Virus record (IMG/VR): IMGVR_UViG_3300005827_000042
Span: 1 to 64,000 of that record
Length of the DNA stretch: 64,000 bases
Source of the DNA: a virus
Direction: 5' to 3' (one strand)
Numbering within the stretch: the stretch's first letter is position 1; the number at the start of each line of letters is the position of its first letter. A model generated the notes under the pieces. That model worked only from the letters and a program-made list of their open reading frames with translations. It had not been told where the DNA came from and searched no databases. The position numbers were made by a program, and so were the translations under genes. Below, in pieces: positions 6,485 through 53,310 of the stretch.

Positions 6485-6641
6485 GTTCACACATACCACT
6501 CCTAGTGGTATCGCAGTGAAGATTATAAGCACCGATGCACGAGGTTACTCACTCATGTCAAATGGTGCAATCATCCCACCTGATATGGAGTTCAAGTGGA
6601 GGAACGACAAGGCTAATGCTACTCTTATTTTTTCTGGGTAG
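6456..6641 (+). CDS. hypothetical protein
   Basis: Start re-assigned to ATG 6456 (GGAGAGG RBS) inside track ORF 6405-6641. Overlaps the helicase 3' end by 29 nt. Confidence 0.4.
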   Translation: MKLRNENETEFTHTTPSGIAVKIISTDARGYSLMSNGAIIPPDMEFKWRNDKANATLIFSG

Positions 6642-6661
6642 TTAAGCAATATAATAATTAT

Positions 6662-6786
6662 AAGTGGGCGGCGGCATGGAAAGCTGACATGCTAGACTGA
6701 CGAGTCTGATATTGCGGGAGACATGGTGCGCTTGAGCCGGGGATCAAGCCCGCGATAAGTAGGAGTAGCGACCTACCCGCCCACTT
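6662..6786 (+). ncRNA. unclassified compact multi-helix element (closing stem plus four hairpin arms)
   Basis: 10-bp closing helix AAGTGGGCGG/CCGCCCACTT (6662-6671/6777-6786). It encloses GCATG/CATGC, TAGACT/AGTCTG, GCGGG/CCCGC with nested CTTGA/TCAAG, and GTAGG/CCTAC. Intergenic, no credible ORF. Confidence 0.4.
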
Positions 6787-6802
6787 CAAACTTGGAGATA
6801 AA

Positions 6803-7114
6803 ATGAAGATCATTAATACCGCACAGGAACGACCGAAGAAGAAGACAGAATCACCTAAGAAACGTGGTGGAATTCCTCCAATCACGAAAGAAGAATTAGA
6901 TGATGTGAATAAGTGGATGGACGAACACAAAGATCATGGTGGATTCAAAACATCTGCTTGGTTCGGACTTCAATGGATGAGTTGTCCGTCATATGTAAAT
7001 GTAACTTGCGGATGTGATGCTACTTACATACGTGAACGGTATACGGACAAACCTGTCCGGTCATCTGGAGCATTGCAGAAACTGGGAACGAAAAATTCCG
7101 GGGGCAGGAATTGA
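6803..7114 (+). CDS. hypothetical protein
   Basis: 103-aa ORF, GGAG RBS (cttGGAGataaaATG), basic N-terminus. Confidence 0.5.
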   Translation: MKIINTAQERPKKKTESPKKRGGIPPITKEELDDVNKWMDEHKDHGGFKTSAWFGLQWMSCPSYVNVTCGCDATYIRERYTDKPVRSSGALQKLGTKNSGGRN

Positions 7115-7614
7115 CCAGCAAAATTCATTTGCATGGTAAACGTGGTCGCAAGCTGGTGCTACTGATTGACGATGCAGATTACTTATTAATCTACAGGATG
7201 AGGCCCTACATGGGATCGGAAGGCTATCCGATGGTGTACCGGGAAGGTAGTGCAGTTCCTGTACATTTGGTGGTAATGAGAGTAACACCTGAATATTTGA
7301 AGGAGAATAAGCTACTGGTCGATCATATTGACCTGAACAGACTAAATGCACAAAGCGGAAACTTGCGATTGGTAACTGCATCACAGAACATGCAGAACAA
7401 GGCACCTAAAGGAAAGTATAAAGGAGTCACAAAAAGAGGAAACAAGTTTGTAGCCAGGATATATCACAACTTAGAAGAAGTTTATCTTGGAAGTTTTAAT
7501 ACTGAAGAACAGGCGGCAGATGCCTATAACACTGCGGCTATCGAATACTATGGAGATGGAGCGAGAATAAATGACACTCAGATTTCAGCCGGACGACATT
7601 CAGATTCACTTTGA
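7111..7614 (+). CDS. HNH homing endonuclease with AP2 DNA-binding domain
   Basis: HNH_3-like VDHIDLNRLNAQSGNLRLVTASQN followed by AP2-like YKGVTKRGNKFVARIYHNLEEVYLGSFNTEEQAADAYN. Probable TTG start. Confidence 0.8.
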   Translation: MTSKIHLHGKRGRKLVLLIDDADYLLIYRMRPYMGSEGYPMVYREGSAVPVHLVVMRVTPEYLKENKLLVDHIDLNRLNAQSGNLRLVTASQNMQNKAPKGKYKGVTKRGNKFVARIYHNLEEVYLGSFNTEEQAADAYNTAAIEYYGDGARINDTQISAGRHSDSL

Positions 7615-9307
7615 ACTTCCACCTCGATATACTGATCTTGAGTATGTAGCAATCGACTCCGAGTTCTTCGGGCAGACACTGGAAAGACTGCATCGTCCCC
7701 ACGGTCGTTTTGCTTGTGTAGGCTGTACATCCAATGGGGTGGATGTGTACATGATATTTGATCCCTCCCAGATTCAAGAGTTCTACAATCGTATCGATGA
7801 CGGTATGCACCTATACCACAATGCGCAATATGACATTCGTCAACTGCGACGGTTTGCTAACATTCCTGACCGTAAGAAGTTGTGGGATGCAATGCTGATT
7901 GAGCAGATTCGATATCGTGGATATTACGACAGCTTTGCTCTGAATGATCTGGTGCGACGCTATACGGGTATCTACATGCCTAAGGATGTTCGGGACGAGT
8001 TCTCTGATGATGACCAGACAGAGATGACCGACGACCAGATTTTCTATGCAGCGTGTGATATTGTCGGCACCTGGATGGTTGGAACCAAACAAATTAGCGA
8101 AGTTGATGAGGATGACACGAATGTGTGGAAGCACATCGAACTTCCCTTCCTGTGGACACTGCTGGACTCTAATGGACCATACTTTGATGTAGCCAAATGG
8201 GAAGCCAGATACACGGAAGATGCTCGTCAGGCAGCGATGCTGGATGAGTCTATCCCGTTCAATCCACGCTCACCCAAGCAGGTGAAAGAATACTTCAAAC
8301 AGAACTTCAAGGTTACTCTGGATGGTACATCAGAGGGGGTCTTGAATGAATACCTGCTGGACAAGTATGGGATAAAGGAACTTGCGGATACCGAGGAAGT
8401 TAGGGAACTGATCGCTGCCCACAAAGACGTGGCAATTATTGTGGACATTCTCACTGCTCGTGGTCTGTCCAAGGCATCCAAGACTTACGGATGTAAGTGG
8501 GTCGATGCAGTTGAATCTGATGGACGCATCTATCCGTCATGGAAACAGATTGGTGCAGAAACCGGCCGTATGTCATGCTCTGGTGATATTCCGATCCAGA
8601 CGATGCCGCACGATAAGAAGTATCGTGAGTGCATCATTGCAGCCCCTGACCATCAGTTGTGTATCTGTGACTATTCGTCCCAGGAACCTAGATTACTGGC
8701 CTACATTACCAATGACCCTACCCTCATCCGCATCTTCCAAGAGAAGAAGGATGTGTATATCGAGGTTGGGTATGTGATCTTTGGTGAGAGATTTGACAAG
8801 AAAGACCCACGCCGTCAGCAGATGAAAGCAATCATTCTTGGTATCTCCTATGGAATGTCCAAGTATGGGCTGGCTGGGCGATTGGGTGTCTCTGTGGATG
8901 AAGCAGAAGAACTGCTTGACCTGTTCTATCACCACTTCCCCACAGTAAAGAAGTGGGTTGATAGTTGCGCTAAGTGGAAGCCCTATACCACCACAATTCT
9001 TGGTCGCAAGTTCTGGGGCAACCCATACTCAAATGGGTGGGAACGTAACTACCAGAATTTCCCCATGCAGGGTTCGGCGGTTGATTGTACGAAGATCGCA
9101 GCAGCTAAACTTCGTAAGAAGTTAGGCTATAACCCCTGTGAAATTTACATGCACGATGAGTTGGTCTGTGAATTCTCTAATGATAACCTTGAGGAAGGAT
9201 CAAAATTGATGGAAGAAACTATGGTTGAGGTTCAGGAGTGGATGCACCCAGGAATTCCTGGTGGGGTCGAGAAGTTTATTGGTAATGACTGGAGTGCCAA
9301 GAAATGA
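7571..9307 (+). CDS. family A DNA polymerase with 3'-5' exonuclease domain
   Basis: Exo motifs AIDSEF, NAQYDIRQL, YAACD. Pol A motif A DYSSQEPRLLA, motif B RQQMKAIILGISYG, motif C YMHDELV. Confidence 0.9.
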   Translation: MTLRFQPDDIQIHFELPPRYTDLEYVAIDSEFFGQTLERLHRPHGRFACVGCTSNGVDVYMIFDPSQIQEFYNRIDDGMHLYHNAQYDIRQLRRFANIPDRKKLWDAMLIEQIRYRGYYDSFALNDLVRRYTGIYMPKDVRDEFSDDDQTEMTDDQIFYAACDIVGTWMVGTKQISEVDEDDTNVWKHIELPFLWTLLDSNGPYFDVAKWEARYTEDARQAAMLDESIPFNPRSPKQVKEYFKQNFKVTLDGTSEGVLNEYLLDKYGIKELADTEEVRELIAAHKDVAIIVDILTARGLSKASKTYGCKWVDAVESDGRIYPSWKQIGAETGRMSCSGDIPIQTMPHDKKYRECIIAAPDHQLCICDYSSQEPRLLAYITNDPTLIRIFQEKKDVYIEVGYVIFGERFDKKDPRRQQMKAIILGISYGMSKYGLAGRLGVSVDEAEELLDLFYHHFPTVKKWVDSCAKWKPYTTTILGRKFWGNPYSNGWERNYQNFPMQGSAVDCTKIAAAKLRKKLGYNPCEIYMHDELVCEFSNDNLEEGSKLMEETMVEVQEWMHPGIPGGVEKFIGNDWSAKK

Positions 9308-9528
9308 GCTTGATAGTGATTGCACTGGTCACGGCGATGTTTGCTGTATGCGTTTTCTGTCTTGGATATTTACTTGCTGATATTCGCCTTAGCAAGGAAA
9401 TGGACGAACTGATTCAACACACCGTTTCTTGTCATGAACTTATCCAGACAATGGATGAGGAAATCAAACTGCATAAGCGCAAACACGAAATCAACGATCA
9501 GATTATTTCACACCTGGAGAATAAATAA
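9304..9528 (+). CDS. small membrane protein
   Basis: 74 aa, N-terminal hydrophobic helix, ATGA overlap with the polymerase stop. Confidence 0.5.
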   Translation: MSLIVIALVTAMFAVCVFCLGYLLADIRLSKEMDELIQHTVSCHELIQTMDEEIKLHKRKHEINDQIISHLENK

Positions 9529-10034
9529 TGGGTAAACATTGTCCTGTTTGTAGTGATCCAGTTATTGTTCCTTTTGGAGATACCGACAGTGATATTCTCA
9601 TTGTAGGTTCTGTTCCCTCTGATGACGAGCTTGAGTCTGGTCGTGGGTTTAGTGACCCCGTATTCTCAATCCTCAAGAAAGACTTGTTCAAGGCCGCAGG
9701 TATTGATATGAATGCGGTGCGCAAGGGATATGTGTGGTTTCACGGCAAGCAATCAAGGAAGGGATGTTTGGAGGTTTCTTCATCTCTTGTTATTGAAGAA
9801 CTTAAGGGTAAGAAGGTTGTGGTTCTGGTGGGAGCAGATGCAGTATCATTCTTCTCTGATCTGTCTGTGGAAGATACAAATGGGCTGGATGTTACCGATG
9901 AAGTAGCATCCAGATTTGATATTGATGAAGGTGCGAGATTCTTTGCTCTATGTTCCCCCACCAACGTATACCGATACGTTGGTGAATATAGGTTCGGACT
10001 TTCAAAGTTAGGAGAGTGGATGAAGCATGGATGA
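9528..10034 (+). CDS. uracil-DNA glycosylase superfamily (family 4-like) protein
   Basis: N-terminal CPVC. SDILIVGSVPSDDELESGRGFSDPVFSILKKDL resembles the family-4 motif (..VGEAPG..ED..G.PF.G.AG.LL). Immediately follows the polymerase. Confidence 0.55.
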   Translation: MGKHCPVCSDPVIVPFGDTDSDILIVGSVPSDDELESGRGFSDPVFSILKKDLFKAAGIDMNAVRKGYVWFHGKQSRKGCLEVSSSLVIEELKGKKVVVLVGADAVSFFSDLSVEDTNGLDVTDEVASRFDIDEGARFFALCSPTNVYRYVGEYRFGLSKLGEWMKHG

Positions 10035-10273: not shown

Positions 10274-10939
10274 ATGGAACTTGATATTGCAATCGTAGAT
10301 CAGCAATTTTATGTGAACAATTTGCCGGTCACTGTCCGTGAATACCTGGACAGTGTTGACCATATTTTGAATCAGATTCAATCCACGGGAGACTTTGAGA
10401 TTGGGGCTAACACCGTCCGTTCAATGTCGTCCATCGGCCACGCCATTGGAATTAGTAAGGCAAAGCTATTGCACGGAATGTGGACACTGTGGAAAGAAAC
10501 TCAAGACCCGGATGGCAATTCTTTCTTTATCTATGCGGCTGAGTTCTGCAATATGCAGACTCTGGTAGTGCAACGCTATATCCAGGCATGGGAAGCCGTT
10601 TTGATTGCTCCCAAGGCACTGTATGATGACATGGTTGCACAACCCATGAAGAACTTGAATGCTCTTGGTGCAGCGGTAGCACAGGGATTTGAAATCTCTG
10701 ATGACACCTGGAAAACGATTGCCACAAGTTCTGACAATCAAACGGTCTTACGTGCTCTTCGTGATGTAAAGGGAAAGGAACCTCGATCAAATAGTATCAC
10801 TATCTATCTTGAAACGGACGGTAGCTTAGTTGCTTGGCAGAATGGGTTAGTAACACCTATCGGATATCTTGATCCGGACAGCAACCCAAAAGCCATCGAA
10901 CGTATTATCAAGAACTCTGGCATTGTACGCAGAGACTAA
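10274..10939 (+). CDS. hypothetical protein
   Basis: 221-aa ORF, AGGAG RBS. Confidence 0.55.
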   Translation: MELDIAIVDQQFYVNNLPVTVREYLDSVDHILNQIQSTGDFEIGANTVRSMSSIGHAIGISKAKLLHGMWTLWKETQDPDGNSFFIYAAEFCNMQTLVVQRYIQAWEAVLIAPKALYDDMVAQPMKNLNALGAAVAQGFEISDDTWKTIATSSDNQTVLRALRDVKGKEPRSNSITIYLETDGSLVAWQNGLVTPIGYLDPDSNPKAIERIIKNSGIVRRD

Positions 10940-10983
10940 TCGAACACTCATGTTCACCTATACAGTGAGGTAATAAAATAACT

Positions 10984-11160
10984 ATGAAACTTACAAAGTT
11001 AGTGAAGTTCGAGATTGAAGTAGGAGATGATTACGTACATACCGCTGAACACACGAATGAAATAAGAAAAAGATTACACCGTGTATTTGACCATCTGAAT
11101 GCCGTACTCAGAATGATTGACAAGAATATCAAAATTGTAGAAGGAGAATCAAATGGATAA
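10984..11160 (+). CDS. small hypothetical protein (58 aa)
   Basis: Hand-read ORF MKLTKLVKFEIEVGDDYVHTAEHTNEIRKRLHRVFDHLNAVLRMIDKNIKIVEGESNG. GAGG RBS. Overlaps the next start. Confidence 0.45.
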   Translation: MKLTKLVKFEIEVGDDYVHTAEHTNEIRKRLHRVFDHLNAVLRMIDKNIKIVEGESNG

Positions 11161-11425
11161 TACGGACGGATTGACCCAGGAAGATATCAAGATTGCGAAT
11201 CAGTGTATTGAGTTTTTGCAGCGTGACGAGTGCCGCGATGCCATTCGTACTACTATCCTACTCCTGTTATCAAAGGATGTCGAGCCAAGTTTGGACATTC
11301 TGATTGTCGGTATCCAGTCGGCATGTGCTACTGTTCTGTTCAACTACATCAAATACCAAGATGCTCCTCAGCCCGTTCAGCGTAAACCGGACGGCATGTG
11401 GGGCCACATTTTTGGGAAGAATTAA
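11153..11425 (+). CDS. hypothetical protein
   Basis: 90-aa ORF, GGAG RBS. Confidence 0.5.
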   Translation: MDNTDGLTQEDIKIANQCIEFLQRDECRDAIRTTILLLLSKDVEPSLDILIVGIQSACATVLFNYIKYQDAPQPVQRKPDGMWGHIFGKN

Positions 11426-28737: not shown

Positions 28738-29523
28738 TTACCTCATTATCCAATCAGTCCACACCAATCTACCACGATTATTGGACAAGAATATTTGTCG
28801 ATTGCGGTCTAACATCGGGGGTTGCTTTTTATGGGAGAACGTGGCCCCCACAAAATGGTATGCAATAGCATTACAGTCTACCCATATTTTATATCCTAGA
28901 CCAGTGATTTGCAATGCTAGCTCCACGTCCTCATAGTATCCAGCACCGTAGGCAGTGTTGAATCCACGCACCCGCTCGAACAAAGCACGTCGCACCATGA
29001 ACACAGCACCGGTAACTGAGAATACTTCCCTTGAAATGCAGCAACGTGGGTTGTTTGCTGACCAACCGATAAGTGGGTGAATTATGTTACCGTCCAAGTC
29101 CACAGCATGTCCAATATGCTGAACCTTACCTGCCGGACCACTAGTAGAGCCATCAGCAAAAAGCAACTTCAGCCCACACATCCCTATCTTCTTATCCTGC
29201 ATAGTAGATACGAGAGATTCTATAGCCCCATCTGTAAGAACTATGTCATCCGAAACAAAGAGAACCAGCGGTGACTTGCCCATACGAATGGCGGCATTAG
29301 CCCCGCCAGGAAATCCTGTGTTGTTACTCGATCTGCGGTGCCGCGTTATTATGGGGCGGCGGAATAAGTCAGCCGCAGCTTGACGATCATCGGATGGGCT
29401 ACCGTTATCAAAGACATACACATTACACGGTGTATTCTTTGTGACCTGTTCAACCGAATCCAAACACTTCTCCAGAAGGTCAAACCTACCAGCGGTGAGA
29501 ATGCAAATATCTATCTTATCCAT
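28738..29523 (-). CDS. family 2 (GT-A) glycosyltransferase
   Basis: ICILTAGRFDLLEKCLDSV..VYVFDNGSPSDD N-terminal GT2 signature. DDIV (DxD-like). 8-nt overlap with the upstream GT. Confidence 0.85.
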   Translation of the reverse strand: MDKIDICILTAGRFDLLEKCLDSVEQVTKNTPCNVYVFDNGSPSDDRQAAADLFRRPIITRHRRSSNNTGFPGGANAAIRMGKSPLVLFVSDDIVLTDGAIESLVSTMQDKKIGMCGLKLLFADGSTSGPAGKVQHIGHAVDLDGNIIHPLIGWSANNPRCCISREVFSVTGAVFMVRRALFERVRGFNTAYGAGYYEDVELALQITGLGYKIWVDCNAIAYHFVGATFSHKKQPPMLDRNRQIFLSNNRGRLVWTDWIMR

Positions 29524-30631: not shown

Positions 30632-31658
30632 GAATTACCTCGTCCCATTTCTGAATAGCTTTCCGAATACTGAATCGTTCTTTAGCCTGTTCCTGTACTG
30701 CACTTCCACATCCAAGACAGGTTTCCTGATTCTTCAAACAGTGGATTGTCTTGTCCACAAATTCTCGTATTTCTTTATCTCCAATAGGAAAACCAATCTT
30801 CGTTCCGAGGTTGGTCGTAGCAAGTGCCCCACAGGTTGACGTGATTGGATAAGCTCCCGCGTAACAACACTCAGCAGTAGAAATACAGAATAATTCCTCA
30901 TAAGTACATGGGTACAACTGAATGGCACTTTGAATCTGTAACTCTATCAGTTTAGGGCGTGGAACCAGAGCATGATAAGTCACATTCGGAAACGACGTGA
31001 ATTTTATCTTGTGTTTGAGACTAATATTTGCACTAAGTCCAGCATCCCACAGTCGATAGTCAGAAGTGATGTGCAACTTCGCTTCCGGAACTTCTTCAGT
31101 TACTGGACCCCAAATACGGGCAAGCTCATTGATCCCACGGTCAGGGACAGAACAGAACAACACCTGCATTGGGTCTTTCTCCACACTCACCCCAGCGTAA
31201 TCCCACTCGCGCACGGGAATGTCGATTACAACACTGTTTTCTATGTTGTACCGAGTGCGGAAATATTCCTGGTGAAATGGAGAAATTGTAACTACCTTAT
31301 CGACCCTACGAGCGAGTTCATAGAAGTTACCAACGGTAAATTGGTCACATGACCAAAAAATCTTTCTACCACACTTGGCAGCAACAGTGCGCGGATTCTC
31401 AGCCCTGAAAATAATCAACACATCACGCCACTCTTCTGGGTCAAATTCAGTTAGGTTCTTTTGTTCAAAACAACTTGCCCCACGCTCACGCGGGTTGTTA
31501 TAAAGAGTGACATCATGTCCAGCTTCTTTCCATGCACGACACATAGTCAGTAAGTACAACTCACTGCCACCAACCCCAAGCTGTACCCCATCTCCGTAAA
31601 TAGACTTCTCTGTAACCCCAAGCGGGCTTCCGTGATGTGCGACTATGTGCAGCTTCAT
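30624..31658 (-). CDS. GT-B fold glycosyltransferase
   Basis: N-terminal GVGGSELYLLTMCRAWKEAGHDVTLY. C-terminal YPCTYEELFCISTAECCYAGAYPITS (EX7E-like). Confidence 0.7.
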   Translation of the reverse strand: MKLHIVAHHGSPLGVTEKSIYGDGVQLGVGGSELYLLTMCRAWKEAGHDVTLYNNPRERGASCFEQKNLTEFDPEEWRDVLIIFRAENPRTVAAKCGRKIFWSCDQFTVGNFYELARRVDKVVTISPFHQEYFRTRYNIENSVVIDIPVREWDYAGVSVEKDPMQVLFCSVPDRGINELARIWGPVTEEVPEAKLHITSDYRLWDAGLSANISLKHKIKFTSFPNVTYHALVPRPKLIELQIQSAIQLYPCTYEELFCISTAECCYAGAYPITSTCGALATTNLGTKIGFPIGDKEIREFVDKTIHCLKNQETCLGCGSAVQEQAKERFSIRKAIQKWDEVIHE

Positions 31659-32968
31659 TTCTTCCTCTTGTATTCTGCAATGAAATCTGAAAAAACCGAA
31701 ACGGTGTAATCAATCATTTCATCAGTAATATTCTGATGACACCCAATCCAGAAAGTATCTGTGGTTACAACATCCGCGTTATACAGATGGGTAGCTTTAC
31801 GATGCGGGGTAGTTCGGAAGGCCGGTTGGCGTAAAAGATTCCCACCAAACAGCATTCGAGTACCTATCTTATGGTCCTCAAGGTATCGGACTAACGTATT
31901 CCGATCAAACGGCAGGGCCTTCTTCAGCGTGAGCGCAAATCCGAACCAGGACGGCTCTGACTTCTTTGTAGCCAGCGGTAGGACAAAGTAGTCCTCAAAC
32001 TGGCACAATCCTTCAAGCAGCCTTGCGTGATTATGTTTACGCCGAGCAACGAAATCAGGAAGGCGACTCAACTGACTAATACCAAGCGCTGCCTGTAGGT
32101 CAGTGATTTTCATGTTATACCCAAGGCGGGAATAGGTATACTTGTGGTCGTACCCTGCTGGCAAGCCAGCTATAGCCGACTGAGAGAATCTGCGGCCACA
32201 AGTATTATCCTTTCCAGTATCACACCAGCAAGCCCTACCCCAGCCACGAAGACTCTCCACAACCTTCGCAATCATCGGTGAGTCTGTGATAACTGCCCCA
32301 CCCTCCCCCATCGTGATCTGGTGGGCCGGATAAAATGACAGGGTGGACATGTCCTCATAGAATGCAGGGGACGACCCATCAAACAAAGATCCAAGAGCGT
32401 CGCAGGAATCTCCGATCAGGAACAGGTTGTTGTCGTCCGCCACCTTCTTCATACCATCTACGTCATATGGGTTGCCTAGAGTGTGAGGGATGAAAATGGC
32501 CTTTGTCTTGTCAGAAACCGCCGCGTCTACACTATCAGGCGAGACATTGTATGTGGGGAAATCCACGTCACAGAGTACGGGGATAAGCCCGTTTTGTATG
32601 ATTCCAGACAAAGTAGTAGGGAATCCAACTGCGGCTGTGATAACCTCATCTCCAGGCTTGAGCGCCCGACTACCAAATTCCGGCTGACATACGGCCGAAA
32701 TAGCCAGCAGATTAGCAGAGCTACCAGAATTGGCAGGAATAGCAAACCGAGCATTAGGAGTAAACGCCCTACGTAGGTCTTGAGAAAATGCGTTCGCATA
32801 TTTACCTTCCGTGAACCACCCATCTAATGCCGCACCAACTACAGATAAAATGTCATCCTCTGTAATTTCTGCACCGGAGACGGGGATATAGTTTTCACCG
32901 GCCACAAACTCCGGTTTCTTTGGCATACCTGAATTTATTCTGTCAAGTATCTCTGCTTTAGTTATCAT
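31655..32968 (-). CDS. PLP/PMP-dependent sugar 3-dehydrase, E1/RfbH/AscC-like (DegT/DnrJ/EryC1 fold)
   Basis: 437 aa. SFYPAHQITMGEGG has His216 where aminotransferases carry the PLP Lys. Cys189, 247, 249 and 257 give C-X57-C-X1-C-X7-C. Also RALKPGDEVIT, GYDHKYTYSRLGYN and PSWFGF blocks. Confidence 0.8.
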   Translation of the reverse strand: MITKAEILDRINSGMPKKPEFVAGENYIPVSGAEITEDDILSVVGAALDGWFTEGKYANAFSQDLRRAFTPNARFAIPANSGSSANLLAISAVCQPEFGSRALKPGDEVITAAVGFPTTLSGIIQNGLIPVLCDVDFPTYNVSPDSVDAAVSDKTKAIFIPHTLGNPYDVDGMKKVADDNNLFLIGDSCDALGSLFDGSSPAFYEDMSTLSFYPAHQITMGEGGAVITDSPMIAKVVESLRGWGRACWCDTGKDNTCGRRFSQSAIAGLPAGYDHKYTYSRLGYNMKITDLQAALGISQLSRLPDFVARRKHNHARLLEGLCQFEDYFVLPLATKKSEPSWFGFALTLKKALPFDRNTLVRYLEDHKIGTRMLFGGNLLRQPAFRTTPHRKATHLYNADVVTTDTFWIGCHQNITDEMIDYTVSVFSDFIAEYKRKK

Positions 32969-33815
32969 TTAAGAACTTCTCCAATGCCTCATGGTAGTTG
33001 TAGTTGGGTGGGATGCTAGGGGCAAGGCAGGAGTTCAGTGGGCGGTTTGCAATACCTCTAACGTTGTTTACCGTCTTGGTAGGAATAATACTATCTCCAC
33101 ATAATCCAAACTTCTCCGCAATATCCATAGCAAATTGATATTTAGACACACACTCACTGCCGGATAGGTGGATTACACCACGAAGTCCAGCATCCATAAT
33201 ATGAACGGACGAAATTGCCAGATCGTCAGAATAAATCGGACTTACAAGCTGATCCTGCGGGGACTCAATACGCTTCCCAAGGGCAAGCTTGTCAATAATC
33301 TGATACGCATAGTTCTTTCTGGCCCATTCCCTTCCAAACACTGCCACTGTACGAATTACAGTACCACCGGCAGTAAGAACCTCACGTTCAGCGTTCATCT
33401 TCTGGATACCGTAGGTGTTTACAGGCATCGGACGATCGTATATGGTATATGGAGTAGATGAGCTACCGTCAAATACATAAGACGTAGAGTAGAAGATCAC
33501 ATTGGAATGTAGGCCCTGGGCAAGGCGAACTATGACCTTCACTGCTTCCACGTTAGTGCGATACGATTCAGAATTTATCTCACAATCATTCACGTGAGCG
33601 TTACCGCCAGCCAGGAACACAACATTGGGGCGCACTCGATTCATCACATCGACTATGGACTTGATACTATTCAAATCCATATACTCATACTCCCTACCCA
33701 TTGCTTGTGAGTAATATGTACCAACAGCATTGATACCTATGTGGGAGTTGAGTTGGTTTAGGATCGCTGAACCAACCAACCCAGATGCACCAACTACAAG
33801 CACACGTTTATCCAT
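32958..33815 (-). CDS. RmlD-like NAD(P)H-dependent 4-ketoreductase (extended SDR)
   Basis: Start moved to ATG 33815 (ATGGATAA overlap with the upstream stop). VLVVGASGLVGSA Rossmann motif, STSYVFDG, YGIQKMNAE (YxxxK). Confidence 0.75.
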   Translation of the reverse strand: MDKRVLVVGASGLVGSAILNQLNSHIGINAVGTYYSQAMGREYEYMDLNSIKSIVDVMNRVRPNVVFLAGGNAHVNDCEINSESYRTNVEAVKVIVRLAQGLHSNVIFYSTSYVFDGSSSTPYTIYDRPMPVNTYGIQKMNAEREVLTAGGTVIRTVAVFGREWARKNYAYQIIDKLALGKRIESPQDQLVSPIYSDDLAISSVHIMDAGLRGVIHLSGSECVSKYQFAMDIAEKFGLCGDSIIPTKTVNNVRGIANRPLNSCLAPSIPPNYNYHEALEKFLNDN

Positions 33816-34236
33816 GCTGAATCTCCCAATCATATGGTACAGAATTGTAGGGTATGCGGTATATCTGTCCATAAGGCTCACTAGCCTGAACCAGTATCAT
33901 CGATTCCATGGACAATCCCTTGAATCCTGCATACACCCCAGGTGGGATATGAACACTCAACATATTCTTATCGCTAAGGTAGATTTCTTCTATAGTACCT
34001 GAGGTCTTACCAGGACGCGCATCCCATAGAACCAATTTCACCTTACCAGACACACAGGTGAAATGTATCTCCTTCGTCTCATACCCATGCCACGCTTTGA
34101 TAGCGCCGTAGGCTACCGTAGTCATGTACACGTCTTTTACATCAAAGATCGGGGTGGCGACCTTCAATACACACCCACGCTCATCGGGTATAACAGTGCA
34201 CAAACTAACAATTACTCCAGATATGTCAACGGTCAT
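33808..34236 (-). CDS. RmlC-like cupin sugar epimerase/isomerase
   Basis: Start at ATG 34236 (GAGGA RBS). DERG.., AWHGYETKEIHFTCVSGKVKLVLWDARPG.., HIPPGVYAGF match the RmlC-type pattern. Confidence 0.65.
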   Translation of the reverse strand: MTVDISGVIVSLCTVIPDERGCVLKVATPIFDVKDVYMTTVAYGAIKAWHGYETKEIHFTCVSGKVKLVLWDARPGKTSGTIEEIYLSDKNMLSVHIPPGVYAGFKGLSMESMILVQASEPYGQIYRIPYNSVPYDWEIQHG

Positions 34237-34414
34237 TTTTATCCTCATCCACAAACTCAACTATATGTATTGCTGTGTGGTGTGTGCTCTTCTCGCAGTA
34301 ATTGATTCTCTGGTACTCACAGCCACAATATGGACAAGTAGTATTCTGTGGCATCTCTCTATAGATAAGCCCACACTTGTCGCACACATAGGCAGTGGCA
34401 GTGAATGGGGCCAC
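34226..34414 (-). CDS. small Cys-rich protein with rubredoxin-like knuckles
   Basis: 62 aa. CDKCGLIY..(x12)..CPYCGC, 6 Cys in total. Coupled to the flanking genes. Confidence 0.5.
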   Translation of the reverse strand: MAPFTATAYVCDKCGLIYREMPQNTTCPYCGCEYQRINYCEKSTHHTAIHIVEFVDEDKNDR

Positions 34415-34753
34415 CTAACTACTCCCGTCCAGGTGTTGGTTATACCCAGCGTGGTGTAAGCATACAAGCAGTGCCCCCATATTTGCTGAAGAGTCCTTGG
34501 CATAGGCATCATAATTCACTACGCCAGCCGGAGAGCCGCAGGTACACCACAGAGTCCAACCACGACTATTGAACACGTGCTTGAACATAAAGTGGTTATC
34601 GTATGGGGCACAGTTCACCAATCCGATTTCCATGTTGACAAATATATTTTTACTGCGGTTTACTCTAGTACCATCTTCCTCAAGCAGGACGGTATTCAAG
34701 TCACCGTGATGGCGAACTACCTTAATCTGTTTGTTACCAAAAATATTATCCAT
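34415..34753 (-). CDS. hypothetical Cys/His-rich protein
   Basis: 112 aa. WCTCGS (C70, C72) ... VCLHHAGY (C98, H100/101). Arrangement is only loosely Rieske-like. Confidence 0.5.
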   Translation of the reverse strand: MDNIFGNKQIKVVRHHGDLNTVLLEEDGTRVNRSKNIFVNMEIGLVNCAPYDNHFMFKHVFNSRGWTLWCTCGSPAGVVNYDAYAKDSSANMGALLVCLHHAGYNQHLDGSS

Positions 34754-35771
34754 TCATTCCTACCATCTTGAGCAAATCACACACACGCTGATCGTATGAA
34801 TGTACAGGGTACCCATCACTGCTAATTTCCCACACACCATCTTTTGCCTGACGACCAATACTGGCAATTGCCTGAGGGGTCTTGAGAAGCATCTCTACCT
34901 TGTACACAGCGTCTTCCACAGTATCAAACCCAACATAATCCACACCATCAGTGAAGAACAGTCCCATATCTGGAACATTGTTCACTACCGGGCACATACC
35001 CATTGCCATCAGTTCAAACACACGAGCATTCAAATCAAGCTCAGACGAGTAATTGATACCAATGGATGCCTGATTTTGCAGTGTGCGGTACTCATCAAAC
35101 ACAGGACCGTTTTCGTAGATGACAGAGATTCCCTTGGCACGAAGAGCCTGAACCAGCTTGGTACGGTGTGGGTATGCCATCCCAATACATGCGCAATCAC
35201 TGGTTTTTTCTTCTTGCACTGGGTAGTGTACAGTCGGATCGAACGCATAGGGCAGGAAATAGTCCCCAGGCATCTTGTAGTGGTTGTGCATATTAATGAA
35301 CATATCTGAAATTGACCGAGCGTGTTGGTAGTGCTGATTCAGACAGTGGGCATCGGTACCGATGGTAATTACCGGGCAGCTAACCCCAGGACGGGAAACC
35401 CAGTTACACATGGCATCTACAGCAATAACTAAATCTGGCTTCCAATCCCCCAACTGGAAAGCCACAGATGCAAACGGCACCAACTTATTGCAAGCCTCAA
35501 AACCCCCAGTAACGATATCCGGAGATACCGCATACTTGCTCAGAAGATTCATTCCACCACCCCACGGAATAAATGTACCAGTATAGGGGCCGGCCGTCTT
35601 CAAATCAATGTCATCACGTCGAAGGAACGCCCTACGCCAATAGGACGCCATCGACAGCGGGTACCACATCGAAAGAAGTAAAACTCGCTTCTTACTCTTT
35701 GATCCCCCACTTTTCAGCGAAGAGTTGCTTGTTTCTGTGAGTACGTTCGAGCCGTTCTGCTGTGTATCCAT
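34746..35771 (-). CDS. CgeB-like (Glyco_trans_1_2-type) GT-B glycosyltransferase
   Basis: Start set to ATG 35771 (GGAGG RBS, 5-nt spacer). C-terminal NARVFELMAMGMCPVVNNVPDMGLFFTDGVDYVGF pattern. Confidence 0.6.
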   Translation of the reverse strand: MDTQQNGSNVLTETSNSSLKSGGSKSKKRVLLLSMWYPLSMASYWRRAFLRRDDIDLKTAGPYTGTFIPWGGGMNLLSKYAVSPDIVTGGFEACNKLVPFASVAFQLGDWKPDLVIAVDAMCNWVSRPGVSCPVITIGTDAHCLNQHYQHARSISDMFINMHNHYKMPGDYFLPYAFDPTVHYPVQEEKTSDCACIGMAYPHRTKLVQALRAKGISVIYENGPVFDEYRTLQNQASIGINYSSELDLNARVFELMAMGMCPVVNNVPDMGLFFTDGVDYVGFDTVEDAVYKVEMLLKTPQAIASIGRQAKDGVWEISSDGYPVHSYDQRVCDLLKMVGMNG

Positions 35772-36372
35772 ATGTTCCTCCACCTACGTGTGCAATTGTA
35801 TTTTCAGGTAATACAGATAGCCGGTATCCCTTCTTCAGGGCGGTTGTGCTTATATCCACATCTTCAAAATCAGACGGGCTGTATCTGGTATCAAACCCAC
35901 CGGATTCTTCCCAAAACTTATTCGTTGCAATCAAAATATGACCATTCATATATGGAAATATTGTGTTACCAAACCGGTTCCATCCCACATCATGAGAGTG
36001 GCACTGTGCACCAAGCAAGATATATTCATCTTCTTCAAATCTACCTACAACCAAATCTACAAATTTCGGGTTCAGAATTCTAATGTCATTTGTGAGTAGG
36101 GCCACAACATCTCCAGTACACTGAGAGATGGCAAAATTCATTCCACCAATAAACCCAGAATTTTCCTTTGTCTTTACAACTCTAACGGGTAAGGATTTGT
36201 CCGCCACAAATAAAGCAAGGCCACGAGAAACTTGAGGGTCGGTGCTGCAATTATCTACTAAAACAATTTCATGGACGTGAGAACAGTAAGCACTCACGTC
36301 CATGAGAAGTTTACTGGTGTATGACCAGCCATTGTAAACCAGTATCGCTATGGAAATCTTTGGGCTATTCAT
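35692..36372 (-). CDS. family 2 (GT-A) glycosyltransferase
   Basis: Start set to ATG 36372 (MNSPKISIAILVYNGW..). VLVDNCSTD and ENSGFIGGMN motifs. Confidence 0.8.
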   Translation of the reverse strand: MNSPKISIAILVYNGWSYTSKLLMDVSAYCSHVHEIVLVDNCSTDPQVSRGLALFVADKSLPVRVVKTKENSGFIGGMNFAISQCTGDVVALLTNDIRILNPKFVDLVVGRFEEDEYILLGAQCHSHDVGWNRFGNTIFPYMNGHILIATNKFWEESGGFDTRYSPSDFEDVDISTTALKKGYRLSVLPENTIAHVGGGTYGYTAERLERTHRNKQLFAEKWGIKE

Positions 36373-36385: not shown

Positions 36386-36751
36386 CTACTTTGTAACCGG
36401 CTGTGCAGGGGTGACTGGGGTGGGAAGGTTCTTACCAGCGTTGAGCACGTCCTTGATGTAGGCATCCACAATCTCAGTCAGTTTATCCACATCATAGGAC
36501 AGGCCAAGGCGTTCACACTCGTGAAGCATTACCCCAAGAACGAAGGCAAGCTTCTCTTTGCCGCGCCCACTGCCGAGGTAGAGCGTTTCAGCGACTAGGC
36601 AAACTGAATGCACAATAGAAACCAAATACCCTTCCTTGTCTTTCGGAAGTGAGCCGGTACTGGTCAGCTTGTAGATCGCATACATAATACTGGAGCCAAC
36701 AAGAACTCCGATACCGAACACCGTAAAAATCTGACTATTGAGTTCCAACAC
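36386..36751 (-). CDS. membrane-anchored hypothetical protein
   Basis: 121 aa. GTG start with GGAG RBS. N-terminal TM helix IFTVFGIGVLVGSSIMYAIY. Confidence 0.5.
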   Translation of the reverse strand: MLELNSQIFTVFGIGVLVGSSIMYAIYKLTSTGSLPKDKEGYLVSIVHSVCLVAETLYLGSGRGKEKLAFVLGVMLHECERLGLSYDVDKLTEIVDAYIKDVLNAGKNLPTPVTPAQPVTK

Positions 36752-36989: not shown

Positions 36990-37050
36990 TATGTCACTCT
37001 CCTAACACGAGTAATATACTACAACCTTCCCAATCATAACATTAATGTAT

Positions 37051-37091
37051 GATTAAAATAAATAGCCCCGTAAGTATCTACGAGGCTATTT
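37051..37091 (-). terminator. rho-independent terminator after the major capsid gene
   Basis: AAATAGCC..CGTA-loop-TACG..GGCTATTT hairpin (37060-37091), followed on the - strand by ATTTTAAT. Confidence 0.65.
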
Positions 37092-37108
37092 ATTGGGCTT
37101 GTCAAGTT

Positions 37109-38275
37109 TTACACAATGCGAGCGCAGGTCGTGGAGAGAGAGATCGACGCACGCTTATTATACACCGACTGAGCGCACTTGGCCTTGATAACAAGAGCCG
37201 TCTTCGCCCAAATCTGGAAGCTAATAGCGGTGCAGCCGGGGGCCAGATCACGGAAAGCCAGGGGGATCTGAGTAATCTTGTAGACCAGCGGTTCACCATT
37301 GTGAGTCATGCGCAGCGGATACAGAGCAGACTGCACAGCGCCTCCACCAACGTTGGTGATCGGGAAGTTCGCATCGGCCACAACCATCAGGCGACCAACA
37401 CCCGTGTAAACCTCACCAGCGAAGTTGAAGCCGGGGATAATGCGATCCTGCTTGGTGGCGTTGATAACCTGACTACCCTGGAAACCGAGCTGGAAGTAAC
37501 TGGACAGCATGGCCTGGATCATCTGCGGGTGGCCGAAGATGTGGGTAGGTTTGGCACAACCTTCAGCGAGGAAGGCATCGAATTCATTGGCCGAGAACGT
37601 TCCACTAATGCCGGATACCGCATTAGCATGGGCACCATTGGCCGCAGTAACCTGGGTGACAATACCATCGAAGTGCAGGGCGTTCACGCTATCGTCGCCG
37701 TTGACCAGCAGGTTGTCCCAGCCGTTCATGACCAGAGTAGCGCCAAGCTGCATTTCCTTGGCCTTCAGATCAGCGATCATACCCAGATAACCGGCACCAG
37801 CATCAGAGCCACCGGGCATACCTTCACCAGCCACGAAACCGGGGGCCAGTTTGGTGATACCATACCCAGCGCTCATCGAAGCGACGCTGTGCATAATATC
37901 AGAGATGCCGAGGGATTTCTTCGCGCCAATGTTCTTCAAATCGACGTAGGAATTGTCCCCATCGTGGGTATACTCTTCCGGACAGCCGTAGTCGGCAAAG
38001 CCGATGTACGAGCCGCTGACGGTGAAGTTCAGTTCGTTCAGTTCACGCCAGGTGTAGGTTTTCAGCCCGGTCATGATTTCAGGAATGGCCCGCCAGGTGT
38101 TGAGTTCCTCGCACATCGTAACCAGTTCCGTGGTATCCAACGGATTCGGGAACTGAGCAGCGAAGTCAGCGGGGAGTCCAGCATTCGCAATAACGGGATC
38201 GGCGGCGCGGCTAACAAAAGCCTGCTCATTAGGGGCATCAGCGCCAAGGTTCAGTACAACTTCAGCATTAGGCAT
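37109..38275 (-). CDS. major capsid protein (HK97-fold type)
   Basis: 388 aa. Follows the protease/scaffold gene, has strong codon bias with higher GC, and is followed by a terminator. Assignment by composition and position. Confidence 0.8.
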   Translation of the reverse strand: MPNAEVVLNLGADAPNEQAFVSRAADPVIANAGLPADFAAQFPNPLDTTELVTMCEELNTWRAIPEIMTGLKTYTWRELNELNFTVSGSYIGFADYGCPEEYTHDGDNSYVDLKNIGAKKSLGISDIMHSVASMSAGYGITKLAPGFVAGEGMPGGSDAGAGYLGMIADLKAKEMQLGATLVMNGWDNLLVNGDDSVNALHFDGIVTQVTAANGAHANAVSGISGTFSANEFDAFLAEGCAKPTHIFGHPQMIQAMLSSYFQLGFQGSQVINATKQDRIIPGFNFAGEVYTGVGRLMVVADANFPITNVGGGAVQSALYPLRMTHNGEPLVYKITQIPLAFRDLAPGCTAISFQIWAKTALVIKAKCAQSVYNKRASISLSTTCARIV

Positions 38276-38334
38276 GGTATATCTCCTTGATTGATCTTCG
38301 CGCCGCCAATTGGCTTAACCGCTGTTTGAATGGT

Positions 38335-47488: not shown

Positions 47489-48112
47489 ATGAGCAAGAAT
47501 CTGTTTAGTGAACTGGATTGGCCGAACGTTCTTCGCAGGGCTTCCCTTCTGGCTGCTCTGGCCCTTCTGGCAGTTTCATACTTTGGTTTCAACTCTGGTC
47601 TGGGATTCAAGGGAGGTCTGCTGGTTTCGTCTATGATTTGGTTTGGTTTCACTATCATCCAATTCATAGGCAACTACACCGAGAATCAGACTGACTGGGT
47701 TTTCTTCATGGTGTGGCTCTTCACCTATCTGGTCGGTATTGGTGCAGGTGCCTGGGCTGCATATGGTTGGATTGACGTAGAGAATGAGTGGATTCGTTGG
47801 GTGTGTGCTTTTGGTCTGGGTGGGGCGGCTGAACTTGTGCCGGAGCGTCTGTTCTCCATGTTTGTTACCAGCATGAAGCCGTCAGGGTATCGTGCTCCCC
47901 GTCCAGCTGTTACTCAGAGTAGCCAGCCCACCCGCACGTCAAGTCTTTTTGATGAGCACCAGTCGGCCCCTAAGCCGGTAAGCAAGGATATCCAGAATTC
48001 ACGCTCTGGTGGATTTACTCCTCGCCCTGAGCGTCCCACACCTCCCAAGGAAGGGAGTAGGGATACTTCCAGCGTTGCTCGTTCTGAAGAATACTTCCGG
48101 GGCCTTCACTAA
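47489..48112 (+). CDS. membrane protein with Pro/Ser-rich C-terminal tail
   Basis: 207 aa. About 4 TM helices followed by a low-complexity tail. Confidence 0.5.
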   Translation: MSKNLFSELDWPNVLRRASLLAALALLAVSYFGFNSGLGFKGGLLVSSMIWFGFTIIQFIGNYTENQTDWVFFMVWLFTYLVGIGAGAWAAYGWIDVENEWIRWVCAFGLGGAAELVPERLFSMFVTSMKPSGYRAPRPAVTQSSQPTRTSSLFDEHQSAPKPVSKDIQNSRSGGFTPRPERPTPPKEGSRDTSSVARSEEYFRGLH

Positions 48113-48702
48113 TGCCTAACGGGATACACCACGACAATGTTCATAAAGCAGGATGGGCTGTAATAGGCCCATCCTCTTTATTTGCCATACTGATAAACCC
48201 ATACATTGGATTTGGGATGATAGCGGGATATGCACTTGGCAGGTACTTAAATCCGGATGCTGACTTGGTTGGGATATCCTATGCTGAAGGGATGGCTCTG
48301 AGACACTTCAGTGTTCTTGGTTGGGTATGGGTAGGATACTGGACACCATATGGAGCGGCATTTAAAAGATTGCATCGGTCAGTATGGACTCACTTCCCAT
48401 TCTTATCCACTATCATACGGTACATCTATCTTCTGTGGTGGCTACCGTTGGTAGATATCAAGTGGACTGGGGAGTTTATGGCCTTCATCATCTCCATGTG
48501 GTTTGCGACATCTCTATCTGATATGGGTCATTACGTCTCTGACAAGTGGGAAAAGTTCTTTAGCAAAATATCTGGAACTTCTAACCAATCTATAAGTAAA
48601 TCCAGTAATAATCAGAGGGATAATAGGAAAAATACAGGAAGAAAAAGGAAAAATAATAATGAACGTAGAATGGGCAATAGAACCTCCTACCACAGATCCT
48701 AA
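48112..48702 (+). CDS. polytopic membrane protein (weak DUF2227-like His/Asp pattern)
   Basis: 196 aa. HHDNVH, NPDADL and HRSVWTHFP motifs. Basic C-terminal tail. Family assignment is from memory only. Confidence 0.45.
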   Translation: MPNGIHHDNVHKAGWAVIGPSSLFAILINPYIGFGMIAGYALGRYLNPDADLVGISYAEGMALRHFSVLGWVWVGYWTPYGAAFKRLHRSVWTHFPFLSTIIRYIYLLWWLPLVDIKWTGEFMAFIISMWFATSLSDMGHYVSDKWEKFFSKISGTSNQSISKSSNNQRDNRKNTGRKRKNNNERRMGNRTSYHRS

Positions 48703-53209: not shown

Positions 53210-53282
53210 AGCCCTATAGCTCAATGGTTAGAGCGTCATCCTTATAAGGTGCGGGTTGTGGGTTCGACTCCCACTAGGGCTA
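53210..53282 (+). tRNA. tRNA, anticodon UAU (Ile, AUA codon)
   Basis: Hand-folded cloverleaf. Acceptor AGCCCTA/TAGGGCT, D arm GCTC-AATGGTTA-GAGC. Anticodon arm TCATC-CTTATAA-GGTGC with a 27:43 mismatch. T arm GTGGG-TTCGACT-CCCAC. Discriminator A, no encoded CCA. Confidence 0.8.
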
Positions 53283-53310
53283 CAAAGAACACATTATTGA
53301 AGGAGGTGAT

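Follow-up and report, generated by a model that had tools for sequence, protein, structure and literature searches.

The stretch of DNA analyzed here (64,000 nt, positions 1 to 64,000 of IMG/VR virus record IMGVR_UViG_3300005827_000042; hereafter the window) comes from an uncultured tailed phage, and its minus strand carries three overlapping genes predicted to encode the late branch of a cytidine diphosphate (CDP)-linked 3,6-dideoxyhexose pathway: a short RmlC-fold cupin, an RmlD-like short-chain dehydrogenase/reductase (SDR), and an E1/RfbH-type 3-dehydrase (hereafter E1). This trio plugs as a module into an operon of ten tightly overlapping genes, which encodes five soluble glycosyltransferases (GTs) and lies downstream of a putative capsid gene (Table 1). 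The best overall explanation, which we consider probable, is that a host-fed E1 branch makes a CDP-3,6-dideoxyhexose for the phage's own GTs, probably for glycosylation of the virion.

E1 is among the mechanistically oddest of sugar enzymes, as it combines pyridoxamine 5'-phosphate (PMP) with a [2Fe-2S] cluster and works through radical intermediates. An earlier note, made from the sequence alone, had recognized in the window a 437-aa DegT-fold protein with a His in place of the Lys that binds pyridoxal 5'-phosphate (PLP) in aminotransferases, together with a four-Cys motif, and its coordinates and motifs were all correct. The segment SFYPAHQITMGEGG begins at residue 211, which makes the His residue 216, and Cys189, 247, 249, and 257 form exactly C-X57-C-X1-C-X7-C (the remaining cysteines are at 94, 133, 322, and 410). 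Pfam DegT_DnrJ_EryC1 (PF01041) matches residues 35-424 (3.7e-79), and with 569.8 bits the protein clears the cutoff of 423 for the NCBIfam RfbH equivalog NF011936, PseC being the runner-up at 179.7. In a phmmer search of all PDB sequences, the top match was the E1 of Yersinia pseudotuberculosis (3BCX; 1e-139, residues 13-430), while ColD matched only at 7e-47. H216 falls on H220 of 3BCX and on K220 of its H220K mutant 3BB8, and C189/247/249/257 fall on C193/251/253/261 of 3BCX, all in ungapped segments (aligned pairs 'sfypaHqi'/'sfypaHhi' for His220, 'gdsCdalg'/'edcCdalg', and 'graCwCdtgkdntCgrrf'/'grdCyCapgcdntCkkrf'). It is this His for Lys and the Fe-S Cys motif that set E1 and SpnQ apart from aminotransferases and ColD (PMC8987622). 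The His and the four Cys columns are invariant in all 89 aligned E1 sequences (8 phage, 80 cellular, and one cyanophage). Judged by its DegT fold, its His in place of the PLP-binding Lys, and its four-Cys [2Fe-2S] motif, the 437-aa protein is a true E1/RfbH-type 3-dehydrase, in line with the identity first proposed. None of the His and Cys residues falls off its column, the protein does not group with aminotransferases, and neither the cupin nor the SDR groups with an unrelated family.

The phage E1 is about 50-55% identical to bona fide E1. Its best cellular match reaches 54% identity, and the top matches span many phyla, with Bacteroidota leading. Metagenomic phage contigs of 12-64 kb that share the synteny carry homologs that are 54-66% identical, and in a neighbor-joining tree (without support values) the eight E1s of the window's own phage group form one clade with no cellular sequence inside. 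Because the phage E1s are monophyletic, the GC content shows no anomaly, and synteny is kept among contigs whose neighboring structural genes are only 35-77% identical at the amino acid level, the E1 gene is, by all sequence indications, an old and vertically inherited resident of the phage lineage.

The two genes that accompany E1 lie upstream of it, and the translational coupling noted earlier is borne out by their overlaps: the cupin stop overlaps the reductase ATG by 8 nt (33808-33815), and the reductase stop overlaps the E1 ATG by 11 nt (32958-32968). The E1 stop in turn overlaps the start of the next GT gene by 4 nt (ATGA). The reductase matches Pfam RmlD_sub_bind (PF04321; 2.2e-41, 142 bits), and its best PDB match is the Sulfolobus RmlD 2GGS (2e-29). 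When read from the ATG at 33815, it contains GASGLVGS at residue 9 (GxxGxxG), STSYVFDG at residue 110 (STS 110-112), and Y135-x3-K139, so that the SDR triad is intact and every motif of the original RmlD-like call was recovered. Against the RmlD equivalog TIGR01214 it scores 152.3 bits, under the cutoff of 224, and it is thus RmlD-like rather than RmlD.

The cupin had likewise been described as RmlC-like, which agrees with both its profile and its fold. It scores 35 bits against PF00908 (cutoff 27) and 30.8 bits against PF05523, and reaches 18 bits against the RmlC equivalog TIGR01221, whose cutoff is 156. The best Foldseek matches of its AlphaFold2 (AF2) model (pLDDT 94.5) are the uncharacterized 3EJK followed by RmlC, ChmJ, NovW, EvaD, and WbcA, with template modeling (TM) scores of 0.86-0.90. 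An FdtA/QdtA-type 3,4-ketoisomerase was considered and fits more poorly than an epimerase (TM 0.70-0.74 to these ketoisomerases, and PF05523 below PF00908). H50 of the cupin aligns with H62 of Mycobacterium tuberculosis RmlC, the catalytic His base, and is invariant in 24 members of the subfamily. The modeled cupin thus has an RmlC-type epimerase fold but lacks a defining catalytic feature of this family (discussed below), and a role as epimerase is plausible. Its site would be C5, because this is the sole epimerizable center that remains after E1. RmlC-fold cupins of about 150 aa, 3EJK among them, form a subfamily that is widespread in bacteria and lacks the RmlC Tyr acid; its closest cellular members (8001-8456 in the loci L007-L009; L numbers denote the loci that we compared) pair with a 334-aa SDR and a UDP-glucose dehydrogenase in polysaccharide loci.

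The minus strand of the window from 28.7 to 38.3 kb is a single unbroken run of genes. After the putative major capsid protein (MCP) gene come, in order, genes for a 78-aa protein, a holin-like protein, a GT2, a PF13524 GT, a 112-aa Cys/His-containing orphan, a 62-aa open reading frame (ORF), the cupin, the reductase, E1, a GT4-like protein, a GT4, and another GT2, and then conserved small genes of the structural module and large tail proteins. All five GT genes are thus flanked by the putative MCP gene and the tail genes, share their strand, and lie among overlapping genes. No transmembrane-like or hydrophobic segment was found in any cassette protein; the holin-like protein is the only protein of the block with a hydrophobic segment, and its relatives match Phage_holin_6_1 weakly. 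Pfam and NCBIfam detected no Wzx, Wzy, initiating transferase, or Gtr-type domain in the cassette.

More than 20 contigs of uncultured phages share this cassette along with the MCP. Whereas a peptide-pattern scan of IMG/VR with the single E1 sequence matched nothing, a later scan with a profile of the orphan brought in 15 further contigs (20-112 kb), and orphan homologs added two more, for a total of 17 orphan-selected loci; the MCP was found in 14 of these at 48-63% identity. They share a core order of GT2, PF13524 GT, orphan, a variable sugar module, GT4-like, GT4, and GT2. E1 is present in 12 of the 17, and only three of these 12 have a match to the transferase. The most complete module, found in the phage loci L001, L005, L006, L091, and L092, consists of cytidylyltransferase, dehydratase, cupin, reductase, and E1 in that order, and L091 and L092 are also the closest relatives of the window phage (65% E1 identity). 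The nucleotidyltransferase of these relatives (243-250 aa) scores 185-223 bits against TIGR02623 (glucose-1-phosphate cytidylyltransferase) and at most 86 against other families, and their SDR (320-328 aa) has TIGR02622 (CDP-glucose 4,6-dehydratase) as its best match. Both proteins fall under the respective equivalog cutoffs, and by sequence CDP specificity is likely for these early enzymes. Shorter modules include reductase and E1 only (L003), an SDR, E1, and a methyltransferase beside the orphan with no transferase (L099), and one with a dehydratase and no transferase (L095); L094, L100, and L103 also keep E1 without the transferase.

The modules vary in further ways. A SAM-dependent type of methyltransferase gene follows E1 in L004, L006, L092, L095, and L099, L095 carries a sulfotransferase (the variant parts of the modules lie at 13390-15395 in L095 and in the region 12337-23023 of L099), and L094 has Mom-like and nucleoside deoxyribosyltransferase-like genes inside the cassette (6073-7118). 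Such variants suggest methylated, sulfated, or acylated sugars. In L093, the gene beside the orphan (10345-11310) encodes a 321-aa DegT-family protein that has lost the His/Lys position and all cluster Cys, which looks like a degenerate E1 remnant, and this cassette has no recognizable GTs.

The window itself lacks the early enzymes, as the earlier note had stated. Pfam scans covering about 40 window ORFs, and tblastn of the window with phage and Aeromonas DdhA and DdhB, detected neither a cytidylyltransferase nor a 4,6-dehydratase. An E3-type reductase was absent in the same Pfam scans and in tblastn with DdhD of Aeromonas lusitana (L046), which has Fer2, FAD_binding_6, and NAD_binding_1 domains and is encoded beside ddhA, ddhB, ddhC, and a YerE-like gene; ferredoxin, flavodoxin, and FNR-type domains were not detected in these ORFs either. 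E1 requires the flavin- and [2Fe-2S]-containing reductase E3, whereas SpnQ is served by general pairs of ferredoxin or flavodoxin and their reductases (PMC8987622). The absence of these partners had been presented as an anomaly. They are indeed missing here, but the oddity was overstated, since the closest phages carry the early genes and, of 80 cellular E1 loci surveyed, 78 have no linked E3. Our surveys of neighboring genes (tblastn with single queries, flanks of 8-10 kb) gave a clear E3 match within 8 kb in two cellular loci, both gammaproteobacterial, and weak partial matches in five more, compared to ddhA in 58 and ddhB in 64 of the 80. The tblastn search found no E3 in any phage locus. 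The missing E3 is therefore not a peculiarity of the phage, and the lack of a linked E3 is the rule outside enterobacteria. The query locus itself (L046, 3510-12000) is a textbook ddhD-ddhA-ddhB-ddhC cluster followed by a thiamine diphosphate-dependent enzyme and an SDR (YerE/YerF-like), which suggests a yersiniose-type branched sugar in A. lusitana.

Because L003, L099, L095, and most E1-bearing loci among the orphan-selected ones are similarly truncated, a module restricted to the late branch appears to be stable, which argues for a working state dependent on CDP-sugar intermediates of the host and not for a fresh lesion. The five-gene module is also found in cells: a Candidatus Omnitrophota metagenome-assembled genome (L056) has the same five genes in the same order, cupin and reductase are adjacent in the cellular E1 loci L045 and L078, and the cupin lies between ddhA and ddhB in L054 and L057. 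Given this shared order and these partial versions, the module is of a cellular type and was probably acquired whole.

Between the first two GTs and the trio lie two small genes. The 112-aa orphan always follows the PF13524 GT in phage cassettes, with or without E1. Its C70 and C72 (CTCGSPA), C98, and H107 are invariant across 24 homologs, and H54 and H101 are nearly so. The family has 194 representatives in a library of 1.84 billion proteins, nearly all of them stand-alone proteins of about 100-140 aa, and has no Pfam family; the AF2 model (pLDDT 81.6) has no fold match in the PDB. In two family members, Hint/LAGLIDADG inteins interrupt the protein close to the CTC motif, and these positions may mark a functionally important site. 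We considered the orphan as the missing electron donor of E1 (Rieske- or ferredoxin-like), and rejected this as the principal reading on the grounds that no fold matches, that it always follows the PF13524 GT, and that it is present in four cassettes without E1 (L101, L104, L106, and L107) and absent from the E1-bearing L003. The 62-aa ORF begins with a GTG that immediately follows the TAG stop of the orphan in the same frame, and its CDKCG and CPYCG knuckles are separated by a short spacer of 12 residues. It fills the slot where the relatives have cytidylyltransferase and 4,6-dehydratase, and tblastn showed no similarity that would make it a remnant of either. As it has no homolog in eight related phage loci and no Pfam match, it is unique to the window phage; from its sequence it is a candidate for a real gene, a read-through extension of the orphan, or a small redox or zinc protein.

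Taken together, we propose that the phage draws CDP-4-keto-6-deoxy-D-glucose from a host that makes CDP-sugars. Following established E1 chemistry, E1 would form a PMP Schiff base with this substrate and expel the 3-OH, and two electrons passing through its own cluster would release CDP-4-keto-3,6-dideoxyglucose. These electrons may come from a host E3, or from host ferredoxin or flavodoxin with their reductases, following the SpnQ precedent. As suggested by its fold and gene order, the cupin would then epimerize the 4-keto intermediate at C5, and the RmlD-like SDR would reduce C4 to give a CDP-3,6-dideoxy-L-hexose, e.g., ascarylose or its C4 epimer. Without epimerase activity in the cupin, a D-series product, e.g., abequose or paratose, would result instead. 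Late in infection, the phage GTs would spend the dideoxy sugar, most likely on a short glycan attached to a capsid or decoration protein of the virion.

The identity of the acceptor is less certain than the pathway. Capsid-adjacent phage GTs glycosylate virions in mycobacteriophages, according to the account of Freeman et al. (2023) given in PMC12619734, and by analogy a virion protein may be the acceptor here, an assignment that we rate at slightly less than an even chance. As the cassette has no membrane segments and no Wzx, Wzy, initiating transferase, or Gtr-type genes, and is tied to the capsid-tail operon, a soluble acceptor owned by the phage is the most economical choice. A wider and more tentative reading, which we would not yet favor, extends this to a widespread, apparently freshwater phage group (genomes of about 55-110 kb) that would have a core of five GTs and the orphan, swap its nucleotide-sugar modules, and coat its virions with strain-variable oligosaccharides of rare dideoxy sugars. 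The swapped modules would be E1-based (with or without cupin, methyltransferase, and sulfotransferase), amino-sugar-like, or none at all, and would range from self-sufficient ones that start from glucose-1-phosphate to ones that depend wholly on the host for CDP-sugars and electrons. If true, phages would here be seen for the first time to decorate their virions by means of a 3,6-dideoxyhexose and of a sugar dehydrase of the radical Fe-S/PMP type.

Several points weigh against the proposal of a host-fed branch that serves virion glycosylation. Functions are assigned here from sequence, fold, and gene order; that the host supplies CDP-4-keto-6-deoxyglucose is our assumption; and a virion protein is a candidate for the glycan acceptor. 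The holin-like gene (in L091 also a lysozyme gene) stands between the capsid gene and the cassette, so that this region may hold late accessory genes in general and not be tied to the capsid. A catalytic Tyr acid (His+70) and a Lys (His+10) are highly conserved in characterized RmlC-type epimerases (PMC9095892), but Y132 and K72 of RmlC align with V116 and I57 of the cupin, and the short-cupin subfamily has no conserved Tyr or Lys at these columns. In addition, its closest cellular homologs (about 40% identity) adjoin the 334-aa SDR and UDP-glucose dehydrogenase mentioned above, and not E1. The comparison with the ascarylose trio drawn in the earlier note accordingly holds for the logic of the steps (an epimerase-type protein and a 4-reductase by E1), while the 5-epimerase role is only plausible. 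Finally, the window negatives cover 64 kb of a 67,942-bp source contig (JGI), leaving outside about 3.9 kb, for which two DNA scans of metagenome contigs with the window ends gave no match, and the E3 survey used one tblastn query, which divergent reductases may escape.

Among the alternatives, the one that survives best, although unlikely, is that during infection the cassette reshapes glycans at the host surface (O-antigen, capsule, or S-layer) and so could block superinfection or keep progeny from adsorbing to debris; the dideoxy sugar would then sit on a glycoconjugate of the host. 3,6-Dideoxyhexoses are classically side-branch sugars of O-antigens (PMC5399914), cellular E1 loci occur in lipopolysaccharide (LPS)-type clusters (L056 has an O-antigen ligase and a heptosyltransferase), and serotype-altering phage GTs are known (PMC12619734). 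However, the cassette lacks the Wzx, Wzy, initiating transferase, Gtr-type, or membrane-spanning proteins expected of such a function, and scans of about 50 window ORFs by Pfam, NCBIfam, or PHROGs detected no integrase. The position of the genes within a late structural operon, and the conservation of five soluble GTs with the capsid gene, suit a phage acceptor better.

It is also rather improbable that the branch is a decaying remnant in this phage, with the trio left idle after loss of the transferase and dehydratase broke the pathway. The early genes of the closest relatives are indeed replaced by the unique 62-aa ORF, and the degenerate DegT protein in L093 shows that decay occurs in the group, but the three ORFs are intact in the window, with the reported catalytic and cluster residues kept and the coupling overlaps preserved, and independent lineages (L003, L099, L094, L100, and L103) keep E1 without the transferase.

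Still less probable is that the GTs hypermodify the phage DNA through hydroxymethylated bases, so that the dideoxy sugar would decorate DNA. Widespread phage GT clusters put diverse glycans on 5-hydroxymethylcytosine, some of them with sugar epimerases (bioRxiv 10.1101/2023.12.21.572611), and the L094 cassette holds the Mom-like and nucleoside deoxyribosyltransferase-like genes. Yet the neighbors that define those clusters, i.e., C5-methyltransferase, 5mYOX/TET, and thymidylate synthase (bioRxiv 10.1101/2023.12.21.572611), were not detected by Pfam in the window ORFs scanned, and the cassette lies among structural and not replication genes. We give very little credit to the idea that, without E3, the protein acts as a 4-aminotransferase or by some other chemistry to make an amino sugar: SpnQ does transaminate without its reductase when given PLP and glutamate, but wild-type E1 had no such activity in similar conditions (PMC8987622), and the phage protein is 50-55% identical to bona fide E1, keeps the His and cluster residues, and resembles most cellular E1 loci in having no linked E3.

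Table 1. Genes of the capsid-adjacent block and its glycan cassette, in order of transcription (positions in the window).
Feature	Position	Strand	Evidence and remarks
Putative major capsid protein	37109..38275	(-)	PHROG 212 major head protein 8.5e-4; NCBIfam MCP 0.008 (weak)
Holin-like small membrane protein	36386..36751	(-)	PHROG 6918 holin 4e-4; between capsid gene and cassette
GT2-family glycosyltransferase	35692..36372	(-)	PF00535 1.3e-16; probable start ATG 36372 (from translation), ORF to TTG 36471; relatives 221-232 aa
Glyco_trans_1_2-like (GT1-like) glycosyltransferase	34746..35783	(-)	PF13524 1.5e-13; start codon uncertain; 33-51% identity across related cassettes
112-aa Cys/His orphan, conserved core member of the cassette	34415..34753	(-)	24 homologs; no Pfam match
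62-aa ORF with CDKCG...CPYCG knuckles (zinc-ribbon or rubredoxin-like)	34226..34414	(-)	Sequence reading; overlaps cupin start by 11 nt
Short RmlC-fold cupin, 142 aa, predicted NDP-4-ketosugar epimerase	33808..34236	(-)	PF00908, AF2 model, Foldseek; ATG at 34236
RmlD-like extended SDR, predicted NAD(P)H-dependent 4-ketoreductase, 285 aa from ATG	32958..33815	(-)	PF04321; ORF reaches GTG at 33881
E1/RfbH/DdhC-type PMP- and [2Fe-2S]-dependent CDP-4-keto-6-deoxy-D-glucose 3-dehydrase (predicted), 437 aa	31655..32968	(-)	NF011936, 3BCX
GT4-like glycosyltransferase, 344 aa	30624..31658	(-)	PF13439 3.5e-7, PF00534 2e-4; 37-55% identity in relatives
GT4 glycosyltransferase, 371 aa	29516..30631	(-)	PF00534 4.6e-19; conserved in relatives
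GT2-family glycosyltransferase, 261 aa, last cassette gene	28738..29523	(-)	PF00535 1.3e-13; conserved in relatives

The phage nature of the window is evident from its other genes (PHROGs, Pfam, and NCBIfam). The minus strand encodes TerL, a portal, a protein with weak MCP matches, and a tailspike-like protein, and the plus strand encodes PolA, a UvrD-like helicase, a DnaB-like helicase, and a RecA-like protein. The position of the putative MCP gene, after the portal and a scaffold-like gene, is consistent with a capsid role. TerL is at most 24% identical to that of any isolated phage, the putative MCP has no match among isolated phages, and megablast of the 9.6-kb block against 50,697 phage records returned no match. 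Promoter and terminator scans of the gene block gave results near chance levels, and the sole RNA gene found in the window by Rfam and tRNA scans is a tRNA-Ile (anticodon TAT, 53210-53283 on the plus strand), outside the block. A 413-aa antisense ORF (37049-38290, plus strand) spans the whole putative MCP gene; it has a low-complexity sequence with many G, R, and S residues, misleads gene calling by longest ORF, and is most likely spurious.

HNH homing endonuclease genes are scattered in this phage group. In the window, an HNH-AP2 gene (7111-7614, plus strand) lies just upstream of PolA (7571-9307), and in two related loci an HNH gene sits inside the glycan cassette between GT2 and the PF13524 GT (1778-2293 in L092 and 8518-9012 in L099); another is found in L001 (1828-2475). 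The plus strand of the window also encodes a uracil-DNA glycosylase (UDG)-superfamily protein shortly downstream of PolA (9528-10034) and a DUF2227 metal-binding protein in the early region (48112-48702).

Compared to known systems, the phage E1 shares its fold, length (437 aa), His in place of the PLP-binding Lys, and Cys motif with the Yersinia and Salmonella enzymes (AscC/DdhC/RfbH; 3BCX), and differs in belonging to a monophyletic phage clade and in having no adjacent ddhD/ascD, ddhA, or ddhB in the window phage. AscE and AscF of Y. pseudotuberculosis O:5a, compared by pathway logic alone, catalyze the same logical steps after E1 and are likewise encoded adjacent to the E1 gene (PMC5399914), whereas the phage order is cupin, reductase, E1 and the phage cupin lacks the RmlC Tyr acid. 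With RmlC and RmlD of the dTDP-L-rhamnose pathway, the cupin shares the fold (TM 0.86-0.88) and the His, and the reductase shares RmlD_sub_bind and the SDR triad; however, the cupin is about 40 aa shorter and has neither Tyr nor Lys, both proteins fall under the equivalog cutoffs, and the nucleotide is probably CDP instead of dTDP. The TDP-4-keto-2,6-dideoxyglucose 3-dehydrase SpnQ of Saccharopolyspora spinosa uses Fe-S and PMP with no dedicated E3 (PMC8987622), and offers a model for the electron supply in the phage. Unlike the phage protein, which groups with RfbH and has CDP-type neighbors in the relatives, SpnQ takes a TDP-2,6-dideoxy substrate and belongs to an antibiotic pathway. The Omnitrophota module (L056) has the gene families and order of the phage relatives and similarly no reductase or ferredoxin, and hence no E3, within 8 kb, but it resides in an LPS-type locus, its proteins are 30-50% identical to those of the phages, and its first two genes have no counterpart in the window phage. 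The glycans that mycobacteriophages carry on the C-termini of their capsid and tail-tube subunits have been credited to GTs encoded by the phages themselves (Freeman et al., 2023, cited through PMC12619734), while here the case is made from genes.

A phage-borne E1-type gene is not unprecedented. The cyanomyovirus S-H68 (MK016663) has a gene annotated as "CDP-4-dehydro-6-deoxy-D-glucose 3-dehydratase" with the His and four Cys, located among cytidylyltransferase, dehydratase, RmlC-like, and GT genes. The phage E1 is 34% identical to its product, the two lineages are unrelated, and the fixed core of five GTs plus the orphan, with a swappable sugar module, distinguishes the cassette described here. 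An unannotated 2.5-kb record, "Salmonella phage S.Kent 1-2-1" (50.7% identity), is a suspected host-type rfbH fragment and was not counted as a phage precedent. We found no paper that analyzes a phage E1-type gene. With the missing-partner anomaly well explained, what is new is the context, i.e., the capsid-adjacent five-GT cassette, the Cys/His orphan, the interchangeable sugar modules, and the unstudied phage group. The greatest biological interest lies in the trio as a swappable module of a GT cassette by the capsid gene, which the first reading had overlooked.

Bacterial O-antigens and nematode ascarosides are, to our knowledge, almost the only known sources of 3,6-dideoxyhexoses, and these rare sugars are strongly antigenic. 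The conserved phage E1 clade suggests that phages build unusual glycans of their own, beyond adding glucose. Should the target turn out to be host LPS or DNA, the finding would be a useful but ordinary catalog entry. Confirmation of virion glycosylation would carry the mycobacteriophage precedent over to an abundant group of environmental phages and would provide compact, E3-independent dideoxy-sugar modules for glycoengineering. The series of full, partial, and minimal modules in these phages is, in addition, a natural experiment on how viruses outsource a pathway to their hosts.

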